Position numbers and translations under genes: made by a program. A stretch of 58,693 nucleotides of DNA, taken from contig CAVPJU010000007.1 in NCBI GenBank assembly GCA_963705505.1, forward strand, positions 1-58,693, written 5' to 3'. Positions 1,997 to 58,693 of the stretch are shown here, one piece after another; position 1 is the first letter of the stretch, and each line of letters begins with the position of its first letter. Below the pieces are notes generated by a model, which was not told the origin of the DNA, did no database searches, and was given only the letters and a program-made list of their open reading frames with translations. Source of the stretch: an uncultured bacterium. Its GTDB lineage: Bacteria; Desulfobacterota_D; UBA1144; Nemesobacterales; UBA2774.

Positions 1997-3435
1997 CTAT
2001 TCGACCCGACTGGCGGTCGTCCGCCGTCCCGTCCCGCCGCCGTTTCCGGCCGCCGCCGAGAGTCCTATGAGGAATGCGAAATAGAGGGCGTTAGAAGGTA
2101 TCTGGAGATTGAAATCCGTAAGACTGTGCACCAGTATCGAGAATATCCCCGTAAGCGAGCCCAGCAGTACGAAGAACCTGAAATAATTCCCCGCCGCCGA
2201 GAGCCTCGTGAGGGCTTTAAGAGATGAATAGAAGAATATGAAAAGGGCGGACATGAGGGACGCGAACCCCAGGACCCCCGTCTCGGCGAGGACCTGGAGG
2301 TAATCGTTGTGCGCGTATAAATATATGAGAGGCTTCTGGACCGAGACTTTGTAAAGGGGATACGCGTATCCGAAAGTCCCGAGCCCGGTACCGAATAGAG
2401 GGAAGTCCTTTATCATGACGGCGACGTCCTTCCAGAGCTCCGTCCTCGAGGGGAGGTTCTCCTCGACGAGGAGGTATCTTTCCAGGACCGGATAAAGCCC
2501 TATGAATAAGCCGAAGAACAGAGTCACCGCAAGGACCGTGTATATCATCCTCCCGATCCCAGCCCCGCTCCTTATAAATCTCGAGCTTATGAACGTAAAG
2601 AAGACGAGCGAAACGAGGACGCTGAAAATTCCCATTCTCGACCGCGAGAACAGTACCGCGAGAAAAACCACCCCCAGGAGAAAGAGGAAAAGGAGCTGCT
2701 TCTGAAAATTTTCGGACGAGACGAGACGTCTCACGAGCGGCCTCCTGTGAGCACCGCTCCAGTCGCCGAGCGACAGCACGCAGCCGAGCGCGAGCGGGAA
2801 GCTCATCTCGAGGAACCCCGCATAGTGGTTCCGGTTGAAGAACGTCCCCGTGGCGTCCTCCGAGCCTCCGCTCCCCAGGTACTGGTATATGCCCACTGCC
2901 GCTTCTATGAAAAGCATCGCGAAAACGGGAGCGAGCGCGAGCCTGATCCATCCGGACGTCCTGAAGCTCCCCGATACCGTTATTCCGAATACGACGTACG
3001 ACAGCAGGAGGAGCGTCTTTTTAAGCGTCGCGTCAGGATAGACGCTGATAGTATGGAAACCGCTCCCGACATCCGCGCCTACGGACGAGAGCACGCTGCC
3101 CGTCTTCTCCCAGACCTCGAGGCTCTTCCGGGAGAGGACACCCAGCAAGGAGTCCGGGAGCGGGACAATCTGGAATAGGCAGATGAGTACGAATATCGTC
3201 AGGGGCAGGTATGGCCTCACGCGGAGTCAAGGGCGCCTTCTCCCCGGACATCGATCCGACAAGCCACACGATAAAGACCGAGAAAGAGAGCGACTTCTAT
3301 GACGAGCGTAGGACCCGGCTTTACGCTCCCGAGAGGGAGCGGCGAAAATACCAGAAGCGCCAGTGTAAGGAGGTATATGAGGATTTGAGCCGCTCTCTCG
3401 AATCTGATATCCGTCTCCTTTTTCCGGTAATTCAA
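1997..3435 (-). CDS. O-antigen ligase/Wzy_C family membrane protein (frameshift near 3220-3260)
   Basis: GTFFNRNHYAG, SRSRMG, GTGLGTF and AHNDYLQ motifs; N-terminus in ORF 3217-3435, body in 1997-3220. Confidence 0.8.
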
Positions 3436-3769
3436 ACCGCCCGGGCTGGAGCGACTTAGAACCGGTCTTCCCCCGGAGGTCTGTCAGTACCAATTATAAT
3501 GCCGGCTCCGGTTTTTTAAAAATCGCCCGCAATTTGAGCCCCGCTTGTCACATGCAATCAATTAACCCGGCTCAGGGCCGGCCTTTTAAATACGCCTTTA
3601 AACATTTATCAGGCATTACGGCTACCTATCGAACGGACTTAATAATTTACATTAGTACCGCCGGTATTGACAATTACCGGGAGCTCCTCTGAATCCCTGC
3701 GGGACCACGCACGCATGGACTAATATTTATGTATTTAGCTATTTTAAAGCACGCTGATTAAAAAAACAC

Positions 3770-53979: not shown

Positions 53980-55203
53980 TCAAACTTTATATCCATTGAG
54001 CTTGAGCATAAGTTGATTCAGGTATTCCGAGCCCGAATCTGCTATCCGATTCTTGATTTTTTTCCATTCATCGATTGGGATTTCTACAAATATATTGACC
54101 ACTCGGGGATCGAACTGGGAGCCTGAAGCTTCGGATATCCTCCGCACGGCATCCTCGAATGAAAGAGCCTGCCTGTAACTTCTTCTGGAAGTCATAGCAT
54201 CAAGGGCGTCCACTACAGAAAATATCCTCGCACCGAGCGGTATATCATCCTTCGACATCCCAGCCGGATACCCTTGTCCGTCGTATCTCTCATGATGAGT
54301 ATGAACTATCGTAGCCGACTCCTCCAGAAAATCTAAGTTCTTAAGAAGCCCGTAGCCGAATTCCGCATGCTTCCTCATCAGTTCCCATTCTTCATCGGTG
54401 AGCTTGTCCGGCTTGAGCAGGATATGGTCGGGGATGCCGATCTTCCCGATATCGTGCAGGAGAGCGCCTTTGGCTATCACCGACAACTCTTCATCGGTCA
54501 GCTTCGCATGTTTTCCGAGATTGACCGCGTACTCGGTGACCCTGTATGAGTGAAAACCCGTTTCATTCTCCCTCAAGTCAAGCGCGAGTATCATGGCTTC
54601 GAGTGTTCCGAAATACGCTCGTACAAGCTCATTCTGCTGCTCCCTTATTGCCTGAGTCGCCTCCTGAACCTTATCATTCAATGTCTCATTGAATTTTTTT
54701 GTCTGATTGATGAGCTCGAGATTGCTTCTGTGCGTGTCTTCGATATTCTGCAGCATTTCGTTAAAGGAACCTGCCAGTATCCAAATCTCGTCCGCTTCCC
54801 CCGCATTCTCGATCCTGAAGGAATAATCACCTTTCTTAACTGTCTTCGTCGCTGATATAAGGCGCTCTATTGGTTTTGTGATCTTGGAGGGAAAGAGAAT
54901 CGTTATTATTCCGCCGAAAACAAGCGACAAGCCTACTATGATAAGCATATACGTATAGTTGTATTTCAACTGTTCATCCACCAGCGTTACAGCACGATCA
55001 ACGATCTCTTTTCCGAAGCCGGGGTCTGATTGTATTTGACTATCGGGACTCGAGAACAATTTATACAACGTGGAATAGCGCCCTTCAAGATTCGAAGCTG
55101 CTTCGTTCAATTTGTACACGTTGAATATAAAAAGCCCCCCGATGATCAACATAAGAACCAGCATGAGGCCGAACCCGAGTCTGATCCGCTTACTGAGATT
55201 CAA
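53980..55203 (-). CDS. membrane-anchored HAMP + HD-GYP cyclic-dinucleotide phosphodiesterase
   Basis: 2 TMs, HAMP (ITKPIERL...DEI..LAGSFNEM), HSYRV, LLHDIGK, HHERYDGQGYP. Confidence 0.9.
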   Translation of the reverse strand: MNLSKRIRLGFGLMLVLMLIIGGLFIFNVYKLNEAASNLEGRYSTLYKLFSSPDSQIQSDPGFGKEIVDRAVTLVDEQLKYNYTYMLIIVGLSLVFGGIITILFPSKITKPIERLISATKTVKKGDYSFRIENAGEADEIWILAGSFNEMLQNIEDTHRSNLELINQTKKFNETLNDKVQEATQAIREQQNELVRAYFGTLEAMILALDLRENETGFHSYRVTEYAVNLGKHAKLTDEELSVIAKGALLHDIGKIGIPDHILLKPDKLTDEEWELMRKHAEFGYGLLKNLDFLEESATIVHTHHERYDGQGYPAGMSKDDIPLGARIFSVVDALDAMTSRRSYRQALSFEDAVRRISEASGSQFDPRVVNIFVEIPIDEWKKIKNRIADSGSEYLNQLMLKLNGYKV

Positions 55204-55456
55204 TTAACTTACCACCCAACCCCCATCGAATCATAAGTAAAGATAATTCTACCCGCTTTCATACTAAAAATTAAATCTTTTCAAAAGTGAAATTAACAAT
55301 CTCTGAATCTTCGAAAAAAGCCGACATCGTCCGGTTTCAAATCAGTCATAGGAACTTTCCCTTCAGGGGTGGAGATTAAGGTGTCGAAAGAGGTGGACCC
55401 CAAAATTCGGACAGGTAGTTAAGGTGTAAAATACCGAATTAAGGAGGTTCACAGGA

Positions 55457-55744
55457 ATGAGCAAGAACAAGCGGAAGAGGTATTCGGCGGAGTTCAAGGC
55501 AAAGGTATCCCTTGAGGCACTGAAGGGCGAGAGCACAGTTCAGGAACTGGCAAGCCGCTTTGGAATCCACCCCAATATGATAGCGCAGTGGAAGCGGCAG
55601 GCTATAGAGGGCATGGCGGAATCGTTCAGGAGCAAGTCCGAGCGTAGTGACGCTCTCAGCGAGGAGCAGGTAAAGGAACTCCACGCGAAGATAGGGCAAC
55701 TGACGGTGGAGCGTGATTTTTTAGCCAAGGCCTTCGGTCGTTGA
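55457..55744 (+). CDS. IS3 transposase OrfA (HTH)
   Basis: RKRYSAEFKAKV...LASRFGIHPN...WK. Confidence 0.9.
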   Translation: MSKNKRKRYSAEFKAKVSLEALKGESTVQELASRFGIHPNMIAQWKRQAIEGMAESFRSKSERSDALSEEQVKELHAKIGQLTVERDFLAKAFGR

Positions 55745-56607
55745 GCCACGTTCGAAGGAAAGGCATGGTTGAGACAAAGCATCCAAGGCTCAGCATTGCA
55801 CGTCAATGCGACCTGCTAAGCATAAGCCGCTCGTCTTACTATTACGAAGAGCGTGGAGAGAGTCTGTTCAACCAGGAGCTCATGCGGTTGGTAGATGAGC
55901 AATTTCTTGATACGCCCTATTATGGGGGAAGGCTGATGGCTAAGCATCTCAAGCGTACGGGCTATCGTGTTAACAGAAAGCGCATACGGAGGCTCATGCT
56001 CAGGATGGGGCTTGAAGCCATATACCAGAAGCCTAATACGAGCAAGCCTCATCCAGAGCATAAGGTGTATCCCTATCTGTTAGGGGGTGTGGATATTGTC
56101 AGGCCGAACCAGCTCTGGTGTGCCGACATAACGTACATACCCATGCGCAGGGGTTTTCTGTACCTGGTGGCGGTGATGGACTGGTACAGCCGCAAGGTCC
56201 TCTCATGGAGACTCAGTAACACGCTTGAGTCGGAGTTCTGTGTTTCGGCCCTGGAGGAGGCTCTGGGGAAGTATGGAACTCCCGAGATATTCAACACCGA
56301 CCAGGGAAGCCAGTTCACAAGCCTTGACTTTACCCGGACGCTGAATGAAGCTTCGGTGCGTATCTCAATGGACGGCAAGGGCAGATGGAAGGACAATATT
56401 ATGATAGAGAGGCTCTGGCGGACACTTAAGTACGAGTGCGTCTACATAAATGCCTTCGAGGGGGGAAGCGAGGCCAGAGAGGGCATCGGAAGGTGGGTTG
56501 AGCTTTACAACAGGAAGCGTCCACATTCAAGTCTGGACGACAGGACCCCATATGAGGCATACTTTGCATTACCAGGGGCTGGATACTCAGCTCCGGGGGC
56601 GGCATGA
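55741..56607 (+). CDS. IS3 transposase OrfB (DDE)
   Basis: WCADITY, NTDQGSQF, DNIMIERLWRTLKYE; TTGA overlap with OrfA. Confidence 0.92.
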   Translation: MSHVRRKGMVETKHPRLSIARQCDLLSISRSSYYYEERGESLFNQELMRLVDEQFLDTPYYGGRLMAKHLKRTGYRVNRKRIRRLMLRMGLEAIYQKPNTSKPHPEHKVYPYLLGGVDIVRPNQLWCADITYIPMRRGFLYLVAVMDWYSRKVLSWRLSNTLESEFCVSALEEALGKYGTPEIFNTDQGSQFTSLDFTRTLNEASVRISMDGKGRWKDNIMIERLWRTLKYECVYINAFEGGSEAREGIGRWVELYNRKRPHSSLDDRTPYEAYFALPGAGYSAPGAA

Positions 56608-56674
56608 TTATGAGGCGGCAAATCCACCTTAAATCAGCCCCAAAACTGTCCAACATTTGGGGTCCACCTCTGAA

Positions 56675-56845
56675 TTACATACAGATAATCACGTTGCTCT
56701 GGGCATTTGCGGTCGTGAGATTGAGTTTTTGATTAAGCATCATTACGGAAATAACGGTCGGAATTATGAATGCGCCTTTCGTAACCTTCTCCAAGAACTC
56801 GCGTCTTTCGGGGTTAACGTTATCCAGAAATTTTTTATCTGCCAT
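56675..56845 (-). CDS. 56-aa twin-arginine-like precursor peptide, copy 1
   Basis: GGAGG RBS; MADKKFLDNVNPERREFLEKVTKGAFIIPTVISVMMLNQKLNLTTANAQSNVIICM; paralog differs mostly at synonymous sites. Confidence 0.85.
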   Translation of the reverse strand: MADKKFLDNVNPERREFLEKVTKGAFIIPTVISVMMLNQKLNLTTANAQSNVIICM

Positions 56846-56885
56846 GGAACTATCCTCCGTCATATTCCGGAAATGTTTATTTCAC

Positions 56886-56914
56886 ATTATATCACGGGCG
56901 TTTTTACCCGTAAA
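56886..56914 (-). promoter_or_regulatory. extended -10 sigma70 promoter of peptide 1
   Basis: TTTACG-17 bp-TATAAT with TGn; conserved before peptide 2. Confidence 0.7.
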
Positions 56915-57112
56915 GCGGAAACCGCTCCCTGATTAAGTCTCTCAACAAATATCAGAGATTAAAGGTGACTTGGATTCTTCGTATTATTAAGGTTAAGCCG
57001 TAAAGTACATGTTTTGGGGTAGGAATAAGGGGGGGGGGTGAAATGAGTATGCCTCTCCAGTTATATTCGCGCTGACATTTCTTTCAATACCATTTTAACC
57101 AGAATCTCAAAA

Positions 57113-57141
57113 TTGACATGGTAAAATTGATTCGCTAGTAT
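57113..57141 (+). promoter_or_regulatory. sigma70 promoter of oxygenase copy 2
   Basis: TTGACA-17 bp-TAGTAT, as for copy 1. Confidence 0.7.
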
Positions 57142-57183
57142 TTGCTCAGATAATCTATAACCCTTTTCTTCCGGGAACTCTGA

Positions 57184-57786
57184 TTGGAAAAAGATTCTGA
57201 TACCGCGTTTGGACTATTTGCAAAAAAGAACTTCCTAGACGATGAGCTATGTAAAAAAATCCGGCTGGAAATGTCTTCGTCAAAGGGGAGCCCGGGAGGT
57301 TTCTTAAAAACAAATGAACGTCTGCTCGATGAAAATGTTCGCAGGACTGTGGAGAAAGAGGTATCAAAAGACACCCGCGTCCTACTGAGAGATAAATTAT
57401 CAGGCATCACAGAAGAGCTTGCAACCTATTTCGATATAACTCTCTCGCACCCGCAAGACCCCAAGTTCCTATACTACAGAGAGGGCGATTTCTTTCAGCG
57501 TCACATCGATAAAGGTACGAACCCTCAAAACCCGCAGGAAATAAAAGACCGTAAGGTATCGACAGTCATATTTCTAAACGATGAAATGGAAATTCCGGAA
57601 AATAATGCTTACACCGGAGGCTCTTTCATCATATACGGAATACTTAACATACCTCGTTTCGAATCTCACGGGTTTAAAGTGTCGGGCACTGCGGGCATGT
57701 TAATTGCTTTTCGCTCTGAACTCTTTCATGAGGTTACGCCCGTAACTAGCGGGGTGAGATATACGGTGGTCGACTGGTTTGCTTGA
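57184..57786 (+). CDS. 2OG-Fe(II) oxygenase, copy 2, 200 aa (TTG start)
   Basis: RHID...FHEV...GVRY; paralog of 316-918. Confidence 0.88.
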   Translation: MEKDSDTAFGLFAKKNFLDDELCKKIRLEMSSSKGSPGGFLKTNERLLDENVRRTVEKEVSKDTRVLLRDKLSGITEELATYFDITLSHPQDPKFLYYREGDFFQRHIDKGTNPQNPQEIKDRKVSTVIFLNDEMEIPENNAYTGGSFIIYGILNIPRFESHGFKVSGTAGMLIAFRSELFHEVTPVTSGVRYTVVDWFA

Positions 57787-58027
57787 CGACGAATCCGCTT
57801 AAGCACACTGACGTATGCCTGTCGCCGGGAGGGCCCCAGTTTTCTCACATCATTTAAATTGAGAGACATAATAAATGACTATCGGGTACTGAGACTTTCG
57901 ATACCATTTCAATCGGTATTATAACCTTATTCCCGTCCATATCTAAAGTAAATACAGACACCCCCGGTATCAAATCGGTTATAGAAACTTTCCCTTCAGA
58001 GGTAGAGATTAATGAGTCGAATGACAA

Positions 58028-58195
58028 TCACATCACGACAACATTGCTCTGAGCATTTGCGGTGGTAAGGTTGAGCTTCTGGTTAAGCATCATAACGGAT
58101 ATAACTGTCGGGATGATGAATGCGCCCTTGGTGACTTTCTCCAGGAATTCACGTCTTTCAGGATTAATGTTATCCAGAAATTTCTTGTCCTTCAT
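58028..58195 (-). CDS. 55-aa twin-arginine-like precursor peptide, copy 2
   Basis: GGAGGG RBS; MKDKKFLDNINPERREFLEKVTKGAFIIPTVISVMMLNQKLNLTTANAQSNVVVM. Confidence 0.85.
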   Translation of the reverse strand: MKDKKFLDNINPERREFLEKVTKGAFIIPTVISVMMLNQKLNLTTANAQSNVVVM

Positions 58196-58245
58196 GGCAC
58201 TACCCTCCGTTATATTCGGGCTAATTGTGGGAAAGCCCAATCCCC

Positions 58246-58274
58246 AGTATATCACGGGTACATTTTCCAGTAAA
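58246..58274 (-). promoter_or_regulatory. extended -10 sigma70 promoter of peptide 2
   Basis: TTTACT-17 bp-TATACT with TGn. Confidence 0.7.
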
Positions 58275-58279
58275 GCGGA

Positions 58280-58693
58280 TGTATAGGTTCAGGACATATG
58301 AGACAAATTTGAGGGGTAATTGGTATGGATAATGCCCTTGTCTTTGAGAAATTGCAATGGCGTCCTGTAGCCCAGTGCCTGATGAGGTCTGACGCAGTTG
58401 TAGATGTAGTTCCAATGACTAAGTTCTTTATTGAGTTCAGGCACAGTCCAAGGACAATCATTGACCTCATAGAACTCCTCCGTATGGGTTCTCTGTGCCC
58501 TCTCTACACACCCATTAAGCTTTGGACTCTTTGGAGGTAATACGAATAATTTTATTCCTGTTCTTTGGCACTCCTGCTCGAACTCTGAGTAAAACTCTAT
58601 CCTCCATCAACCTGTATAGCTTTTATCTTAAATGGCATACCTCTGTGAACTGTATCCAAAAACTCTTTTGCTGTCCTTGAGGTTGCTCGAGTT
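58280..58693 (-). mobile_element. IS481-like element, end with transposase C-terminus (runs off window; one frameshift)
   Basis: Minus strand reads KAIQVDGG.EF...PPKSPKLNGCVERAQRT...YNCVRPHQALGYRTP, stop 58289-58291; TGT terminus at 58280. Confidence 0.78.

Follow-up and report, generated by a model that had tools for sequence, protein, structure and literature searches.

Paired small peptide genes beside a 2OG-Fe(II) oxygenase are probably truncated members of a leader-core-Hint family in an uncultured Desulfobacterota_D bacterium

We analyzed a stretch of 58,693 nt (the window; contig CAVPJU010000007.1 of assembly GCA_963705505.1, positions 1 to 58,693) from an uncultured bacterium of the order Nemesobacterales (Desulfobacterota_D). 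Near its end, two small genes, named here copy A and copy B, flank a gene for a 2-oxoglutarate- and iron(II)-dependent (2OG-Fe(II)) oxygenase. An earlier note on this DNA had proposed that the small genes encode the precursors of a ribosomally made and then post-translationally modified peptide (RiPP) or of a peptide signal, with the oxygenase acting on them. Our results suggest that the two small genes are probably the remains of two genes of ~205 codons, each encoding a leader, a short core and a Hint domain, which have been kept as short forms. The machinery that acts on their products is probably a modification cluster of the type located on another contig of the same genome (C2), and not the oxygenase.

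Two small genes that stop at the start of a Hint domain

Copy A (56675-56845, minus strand) encodes 56 amino acids from its ATG and ends with the tail QSNVIICM; copy B (58028-58195, minus strand) encodes 55 amino acids, with the same leader and the tail QSNVVVM. The two ORFs (open reading frames) described in the earlier note are therefore present on both sides of the oxygenase gene (57184-57786, plus strand, 200 aa, PKHD/prolyl-hydroxylase-like), with the correction that both lie on the opposite strand to it, copy A divergent and copy B convergent. A direct repeat of 180 nt (56691-56870 and 58041-58220; 82% identical) spans both ORFs. The ribosome-binding site and extended -10 promoter claimed for each ORF were also recovered: GGAGG is located 8 nt 5' of the ATG in both copies, and both have a near-consensus promoter-like site with a TG extension, TTTACG-17-TATAAT for copy A (56886-56914, minus strand; 10 of 12 matches) and TTTACT-17-TATACT for copy B (58246-58274, minus strand; 9 of 12 matches). 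Over the first 52 codons, the Nei-Gojobori method gave 26.0 synonymous and 3.0 non-synonymous nucleotide differences between the copies, the latter corresponding to two amino-acid changes (pS = 0.79, which is saturated; pN = 0.024), in line with the 25 and 2 previously counted by hand. The presence of these paired conserved small ORFs is far beyond chance. The same genome holds a third paralog (contig C2; tail QSSNIP) and public data contain 214 short and 126 long homologs.

Comparison with the long homologs revealed that both copies stop where the Hint domain begins. In copy B, the TGA stop (58028-58030) occupies the codon of the first cysteine of the Hint domain (Cys1). It is followed by a Hint remnant (57854-58027, minus strand) of 56 in-frame codons; past these the reading frame is lost, and the domain ends abruptly close to the 3' end of the oxygenase gene. 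This remnant resembles the Pfam family Hint_2 only below threshold (E = 0.03; 15 bits against a cut-off of 28.4). In copy A, the last two codons (C and M) and the TAA stop correspond to codons 1-3 of the Hint domain of the long forms; two database relatives, P0002 and P0056, end in C-L-stop where copy A ends in C-M-stop. Neither copy therefore encodes an intact Hint domain with Cys1 and block B, the stops falling at Hint codon 1 in copy B and codon 3 in copy A.

Immediately behind the stop of copy A lies an IS3-family insertion sequence (IS; 55389-56671, plus strand) with 26-nt inverted repeats (55389-55414 and 56646-56671) and two ORFs (orfA, 55457-55744; orfB, with an rve domain, 55741-56607); the duplicated target on either side is the 3-bp sequence GAA (55386-55388 and 56672-56674). 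The Hint remnant of copy A resumes past this element (55293-55388, minus strand) with ~20 codons that match the family, followed by divergence and a stop, and the segment 55331-55391 is 85% identical to 57964-58024 behind copy B. We searched the whole genome of the organism (assembly 93.6% complete) with five long forms using tblastn. Copy B aligned across its stop with residues 1-111 of the 206 of long form P0123 (81% identity), copy A aligned with residues 1-60 (88% identity), and the copy A remnant beyond the IS aligned with residues 59-78 (90% identity). No intact Hint member of the family was found in this genome by the same search.

Two further lines of evidence bear on the origin of the copies. 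In nine other loci, long-form genes are preceded by the same promoter motif as copies A and B, whereas the upstream sequences of short-form genes in arrays are unlike it, which argues that copies A and B are former long-form genes. In addition, DNA contigs of related strains, as well as contigs from one RNA library, contain copy A without the IS and running on into Hint-like sequence. These sequencing-run data are assembled contigs, from which strand, ends and RNA level cannot be read and whose uncovered parts prove nothing. The contigs without the IS confirm the reconstruction and indicate that the IS insertion is strain-specific.

Selenocysteine insertion or read-through at the TGA of copy B is not supported: ARAGORN reported 44 tRNAs in this 93.6%-complete genome with no SeC tRNA among them, the best match to RF01852 as a candidate tRNA-Sec scored 45.3 bits, below the gathering score of 47, and SelA was not found. 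Read-through is also disfavoured by the downstream Hint domain, which is truncated anyway.

Family members in public data are often frameshifted or interrupted by internal stops (P0128, P0130 and P0211, as well as G006:C434, G007:C10:54260 and G023:C21), and gene decay is common in the leader-Hint family.

A narrow family with short and long forms

All of the 214 near-length candidates retrieved from public data matched the family at E ≤ 0.01 (short forms; 53-80 aa, with 76-100% identity in the leader), as did 126 of the 132 longer candidates (long forms; ~195-227 aa, about 205). Long forms are composed of a leader of ~50 aa, a hypervariable core of 4-10 aa starting with x-S-N, a Hint domain with an invariant Cys and a short C-terminal tail; short forms consist of the leader and a tail only. 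Across 110 aligned short forms, R14, R15, F17, T22, G24, A25, F26, P29, M36, L37, L41, T45, A46, N47 and A48 are invariant and E16, L18, K20 and S50 are nearly so, and the sequence that follows is hypervariable. The twin-arginine motif and the A-N-A site, first pointed out in the two copies of the window, are thus part of the invariant columns, and the constant leader followed by a variable tail extends to the whole family.

Short-form tails (4-13 aa, mode 8) and the linkers of long forms (4-10 aa, mode 7) are alike in composition, with S, N, Q, P, V, D, G, A and T. The pattern N-x-S/T is found in 45 of 120 short tails and in 31 of 111 long-form linkers; proline makes up 13.5% of short tails, and cysteine occurs in 2 of the 120. 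Some short forms of the genus g4 carry long collagen-like tails of the type G-P-T/G-x-y (L038:10385-10675 and L039:10724-10963), and a collagen-triple-helix-repeat protein (PF01391, E = 1e-28) adjoins the modification cluster in genome G014, with L037:2664-3764 also noted.

The three peptides of the organism itself match no Pfam or NCBIfam model at E ≤ 0.1. Among the 120 long forms listed, 40 have a precomputed match to PF13403 (Hint_2), and some long forms are named 'Hint domain-containing protein' in metagenome-assembled genomes labelled Thermodesulfobacteriota or Candidatus Dadabacteria. An exhaustive search of 1.84 billion representatives with the short-form profile returned 20 matches at E ≤ 0.001, which indicates that the family is narrow. 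In the few distant relatives, RR-x-F, the hydrophobic stretch and a short tail are retained, as is an A-x-A whose middle residue varies. In a genome survey of the order, the family was detected in 16 of 41 genomes (81 matches), all in one family-level group: besides the organism itself, 15 of the 24 genomes of this group carry it and 0 of the 16 genomes of other families do. Intact long forms are also present as orphans outside the modification cluster.

The Hint domain of the long forms

We further analyzed the C-terminal domain that copies A and B have lost. In 108 aligned long forms, C57, L58, S124, H127 and P128 are invariant, corresponding to Cys1-Leu2 and an S-x-x-H-P block. The long-form profile matched an engineered intein among PDB sequences (E = 4.7e-09). 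The AlphaFold2 (AF2) model of P0123 has a predicted local distance difference test score (pLDDT) of 88-96 over residues ~61-180, and a Foldseek search with this model gave 63 PDB matches at E ≤ 0.001, those listed being inteins, bacterial intein-like (BIL) or Hedgehog domains (best E ~1e-08). The Hint fold as well as Cys1 and block B are therefore found in the long-form relatives.

The long forms share with Hedgehog/Hog and BIL proteins the Hint fold (the BIL domain of C. thermocellum, BIL2 of Tetrahymena and Hedgehog 1at0 were matched), the invariant N-terminal Cys and the S/T-x-x-H block. Hedgehog proteins present a signal-like N-terminus, then a cargo, then the Hint domain, and the layout of the long forms resembles this order. 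However, the cargo of the long forms is just 4-10 residues long, and their genes lie in a RiPP-like cluster of glycosyltransferases and a kinase. A terminal H-N splicing motif does not show among the invariant or near-invariant columns of the 108 sequences, and just a variable tail of ~20 aa follows the domain.

No paper that joins a Hint domain to RiPP precursors turned up in full-text searches, which did not reach subscription journals or bioRxiv supplements. Among the matches listed, the titles and opening lines of abstracts of papers on Dadabacteria biosynthetic gene clusters do not point to this family, and no title or abstract opening in the literature on bacterial intein-like or Hint proteins with signal peptides concerned such precursors. 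The Hint-fused precursor design appears to be undescribed.

Evolution of the truncated copies

If the copies are truncated genes, they might be maintained in their short form or simply decay. We compared copy B with its ortholog in the related genome G008, with which it has the TGA in common. The shared stop implies that the divergence of the two sequences postdates the loss of read-through into the Hint domain. Over the leader and tail, this divergence shows a very low ratio of non-synonymous to synonymous change (omega = 0.035; dN = 0.052, dS = 1.48), relative to the Hint remnant of the same pair (omega = 0.30; dN = 0.208, dS = 0.70). The two regions differ in non-synonymous change (p ~0.002). 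Three distinct sequences (the window, G008 and P0003) retain both the tail NVVVM and the stop. At 97% identity, the ORF of copy A is represented among the RNA-library contigs, a weak hint of expression, as DNA carry-over is possible. Given the low omega, the intact promoters and Shine-Dalgarno sequences and the same design as natural short forms, both short ORFs most likely continue to be expressed as precursors of the short type.

Alternatively, both copies could be pseudogene remains of leader-Hint genes, without present function, in the IS-ridden end of a contig. The stop codons in place of Hint codons 1 and 3, the IS3 insertion, the truncated Hint domains, the additional transposase fragment at the contig end and the lack of an intact Hint member in the searched genome are all compatible with this scenario. 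However, debris would not be expected to present strong constraint on the leader and tail at saturated dS, accumulated after the truncation shared with G008, nor the same tail and stop in three sequences. The promoter and Shine-Dalgarno sequences are intact, the product is indistinguishable in design from the 214 natural short forms, and the RNA-library contigs over copy A point, weakly, in the same direction. We therefore regard this explanation as unlikely.

A candidate modification cluster elsewhere in the genomes

In 10 relatives, family genes are housed in a conserved cluster, and the same cluster is found on contig C2 of the organism itself. Its first part comprises, in order, an M64 peptidase, an extracytoplasmic function (ECF) sigma factor, a PIMT-like methyltransferase, a PqqD protein, an HprK-like P-loop protein and one or two long-form genes. 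These are followed by a family 2 glycosyltransferase (GT2) fused to TPR repeats (GT2-TPR), a GT2, a DXD-GT/GT1 fusion, an array of 2-7 short-form genes split by a second GT2-TPR gene, and an NTP_transf_5 gene. The C2 cluster contains a single short form, the paralog with the tail QSSNIP, and no long form. Searching these 11 loci (10 relatives and C2) with tblastn, we found GT2-TPR in 11/11 loci, PqqD, HprK-like, GT2 and NTP_transf_5 each in 10/11 and DXD-GT/GT1 in 9/11, the misses falling in loci cut by contig ends. The oxygenase was found in 0/11.

The cluster enzymes match HprK_rel_A (E = 2e-16), PqqD (E = 1e-09) and NTP_transf_5 (E = 2e-39), and the GT2-TPR proteins match the SunS family TIGR04195 (E ~3e-19 to 2e-20), the alignment spanning the catalytic half and some of the helical region. 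The family thus combines a leader and a variable core with PqqD (10/11 loci) and tailoring enzymes (GT2-TPR, 11/11 loci), as expected of RiPP precursors. This does not extend to copies A and B, as no cluster genes are present within the last 13.7 kb of the window. Among the Pfam matches (E ≤ 0.001) of 31 proteins from four cluster loci, there was no lasso cyclase, leader peptidase or ABC transporter family. By these 31 proteins, the cluster does not qualify as a lasso peptide system; nor does it qualify as a glycocin/SunS system, since the matches are below the SunS cut-off and cysteine is nearly absent from the short tails.

The closest described systems share parts of this gene set. In pseudomycoidin, a kinase and an uncharacterised nucleotidyltransferase (PsmK and PsmN) act in C-terminal phosphorylation and subsequent hexosylation (PMC6993621). 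The cluster has in common with the lasso tailoring systems of the pseudomycoidin and paeninodin-kinase type an HprK-like kinase, a PqqD-family protein and a nucleotidyltransferase accompanying short precursors. It differs from lasso systems in the absence of any lasso cyclase or leader peptidase match among the 31 proteins, in its export-like leader and in an HprK_rel_A match below the cut-off. PsmN is presumably a member of PF14907. With glycocins, the cluster shares GT2-TPR proteins that match the SunS family and adjoin arrays of short precursors; in contrast to glycocins, these matches are far below the cut-off, the cores lack Cys pairs and no ABC transporter-peptidase was seen among the 31 scanned proteins. 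Literature joining HPr kinase, PqqD, nucleotidyltransferase and glycosyltransferase was limited, among the matches found, to rumen lasso peptides.

The best reading of these gene neighborhoods is that the family represents RiPP-like glycopeptide precursors. The RiPP-like interpretation put forward in the earlier note therefore stands for the family, through PqqD and the peptide-glycosyltransferase-like cluster, but not for the oxygenase as partner. On contig C2 (L043:8313-11062) and in genome G012 (L041:1955-4692), two large membrane-protein genes (~560 and 355 aa) lie beside NTP_transf_5; they are absent from the flanks of the other relatives.

The oxygenase and its distribution

The oxygenase belongs to the 2OG-Fe(II) superfamily (PF13640, E = 5.9e-13; score of 50 bits, cut-off 27), and H-I-D and a distal H-E-V are visible in its translation (HxD...H). 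Among solved structures, the best matches are to PKHD-type hydroxylases (E = 5e-04), which likens the enzyme to PKHD/prolyl-4-hydroxylase-like proteins such as YbiX and PiuC; it differs from these by its short form of 200 aa and by its restriction to one genus in the genomes searched. Homologs are found in 9 of the 41 genomes, all of them from the genus of the window (8 of its 9 other members). We did not find the oxygenase at E ≤ 1e-5 in the genera g4 (0/4 genomes) and g6 (0/3), where the peptides occur in 4/4 and 2/3 genomes, respectively.

The oxygenase adjoins 3 of the 81 family genes in the 16 genomes, and a leader gene is present in the flanks of 3 of the 15 oxygenase loci examined, two flanks ending at contig ends. 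Orthologs with ~60% identity adjoin Amidohydro_2 and lipoprotein genes, without peptides. At G008:C410, an oxygenase 85% identical to that of the window is accompanied by a convergent peptide gene with the tail NVVVM and, as in the window, a TGA at Cys1. A scan of metagenomes with the oxygenase yielded only three confirmed loci. At one metagenome locus, L056, an oxygenase 71% identical has a true short form with a different tail 75 nt past its stop. On another contig of G008 (G008:C54; L059), an oxygenase paralog (57% identity; 2767-3372) is followed by a PqqD gene on the same strand (3470-3742; E = 2e-15); the contig ends shortly after, with no precursor gene seen on it.

These data allow us to weigh the proposal that the oxygenase and the flanking peptides form one unit, in which the enzyme would hydroxylate the precursor or its tail, for instance at Pro, Asn or Asp. 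The convergent pair, 75-250 nt apart, recurs in the window, G008:C410 and L056, DNA contigs of related strains keep the order A-oxygenase(-B), a paralog precedes a PqqD gene, and a PKHD/prolyl-hydroxylase-like enzyme would suit Pro-rich tails. However, the three positive lineages are close kin, so that their synteny does not constitute independent evidence, and the genes of the window are on opposite strands with separate promoters. The proposal is further at odds with the absence of the oxygenase from the cluster loci, with the few family genes and oxygenase loci at which the two meet, with the peptides of g4 and g6, where no oxygenase was found, and with the different neighbors of the ~60% orthologs. 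Two observations that the earlier note had itself listed as speaking against a dedicated tailoring enzyme were both made: homologs of the peptides occur without the oxygenase, and the peptides correspond to the N-termini of longer, Hint-fused proteins. We conclude that the adjacent oxygenase is probably not the partner of the small genes. A peptide-directed role retains a small probability, given the PqqD gene behind one further paralog.

Another oxygenase copy (83% identity) is located at the opposite end of the contig (187-918, plus strand; match over 316-912), where its neighbors are a lipoprotein-like gene (1302-1901) and a gene resembling Wzy_C O-antigen ligases (1997-3220). In genome G007, an intact orphan leader-Hint gene lies beside this lipoprotein/ligase pair (L007), an arrangement that suggests an ancient neighborhood common to the oxygenase and one orphan gene of the long form.

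The leader as a candidate export signal

The leader, as seen in the 110 short forms, has the features of a twin-arginine translocation (Tat) signal sequence: a motif of the S/T-R-R-x-F-L-K type, a hydrophobic region of ~14-17 residues and A-x-A. The genome encodes TatC (E = 1.9e-70). Tat-signal N-termini make up the nearest named Atlas clusters (scores 0.87-0.88), which we take as leads only.

An alternative is that the leader is a permanent membrane anchor of small single-pass proteins, which would display a short, possibly glycosylated variable tail, with Hint coupling the anchor to another molecule. The whole 50-aa segment, including the region past the hydrophobic stretch, is indeed far more conserved than ordinary signal peptides, no Tat or Sec profile matches it and AF2 draws helices at 12-23 and 29-48 with low confidence, but a short hydrophobic stretch, an invariant RR-x-F-L, an A-x-A kept even in distant relatives and the Tat-signal Atlas leads make this anchor very improbable.

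Phr/RRNPP signaling propeptides of Firmicutes have a signal peptide, then a short variable C-terminal peptide, and are encoded by multicopy genes. The family has the same layout, which was the pheromone model of the earlier note. It differs in belonging to another phylum and in its location within a modification cluster; no cognate receptor turned up, none having been searched for. Bufferins are RiPPs with Sec signal peptides that are cut by signal peptidase (PMC11626156). In their precursors, as in those of this family, a general export signal forms the N-terminal segment. Bufferins differ by their MNIO/DUF2063 enzymes and Cys-containing cores of 60-70 aa, whereas the family has a twin-arginine-like signal, a tiny core and unrelated enzymes. 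A DUF2282 gene (PF10048, E = 1e-23), from the bufferin precursor family, lies a few kb from the cluster in genomes G003 and G004 (L033:17691-17984 and L034:213-506), probably coincidentally.

Other features of the window

The oxygenase gene is preceded by a promoter-like site (57113-57141, plus strand; TTGACA-17-TAGTAT), which is a consensus match only. At the contig end, 58289-58444 (minus strand) is a fragment of a transposase with an integrase core (rve_3, E = 3.8e-07). Directly downstream of the copy A Hint remnant is a gene for a signaling protein of 407 aa with HAMP and HD-GYP-type (HD_5) domains (53980-55203, minus strand). Long open frames of 74-150 aa lie antisense to every peptide gene, and their translation recurs (in the window, 56657-56932 and 58062-58286, plus strand; in relatives, for example L034:7085-7477, plus strand). 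These frames are a shadow of the conserved leader, and gene callers may mis-annotate them.

Discussion

Our results indicate that copies A and B are likely to be former leader-core-Hint genes that persist as short forms, with a cluster of the C2 type as the probable machinery. Under this reading, the leader would be bound in the cytoplasm by PqqD or TPR domains. The core, with its conserved Ser, frequent N-x-S/T and Pro/Thr-rich composition, could then be phosphorylated and/or glycosylated, by analogy with pseudomycoidin and SunS-type enzymes. The leader would subsequently direct export, for which TatC is present, and signal peptidase would cut after A-x-A, with bufferins as precedent, to release a small modified peptide. 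In the long forms, a thioester formed by the Hint Cys at the C-terminus of the core might release or transfer the core.

A more specific possibility, which we put forward tentatively, is that the leader-core-Hint protein is a self-processing RiPP precursor comparable to a minimal bacterial 'Hedgehog'. In such a protein, a Tat-type leader would be followed by a modified core, and the Hint thioester would either free the mini-peptide or ligate it to an acceptor such as a lipid, an amine or the peptide's own N-terminus, with no need for a dedicated protease or transporter. As part of the same tentative proposal, short forms, copies A and B included, could arise repeatedly from long forms by nonsense mutations at or near the Cys1 codon and would give an unactivated product.

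Several observations weigh against the interpretation of the copies as short-form precursors served by the cluster. The modification, export and cleavage steps are all ones that we infer. No Tat-signal model of Pfam or NCBIfam matches the peptides at E ≤ 0.1, and the leader is predicted at low confidence (pLDDT 38-53). The enzyme matches are below the cut-offs of the respective families (HprK_rel_A, 60 bits against 200; SunS, 69-73 against 350; HPr-rel-A PqqD, 28 against 35). The copies of the window are about a contig away from the cluster, so that their use by it is an assumption. The adjacency of the oxygenase in three lineages and the pairing of a paralog with PqqD make a link to the peptides possible. 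Finally, the omega of the Hint remnant (~0.30) is significantly below 1 (Fisher p ~0.001), which a simple dead remnant would not predict; the frame of this remnant is open over 56 codons in the window and 101 codons in G008 (L045/L060, G008:C410), and a start codon directly follows the TGA of copy B (TTG in the window, ATG in G008).

The window contains a pair of probably truncated members of an apparently undescribed and narrow family, which is a new variant of RiPP-like systems. It also carries a lesson, as apparent pairs of precursor and tailoring enzyme can be the eroded ends of long genes that rearrangement and IS activity have placed beside an unrelated enzyme. If our interpretation is true, this uncultivated lineage uses a general export signal as a RiPP leader, and Hint serves as a built-in C-terminal activating and releasing device in half of the genes. 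The family would then offer a compact natural tool for peptide thioester chemistry, as well as a defined substrate family for the widespread but uncharacterised set of HprK-like, PqqD and NTP_transf_5 genes.

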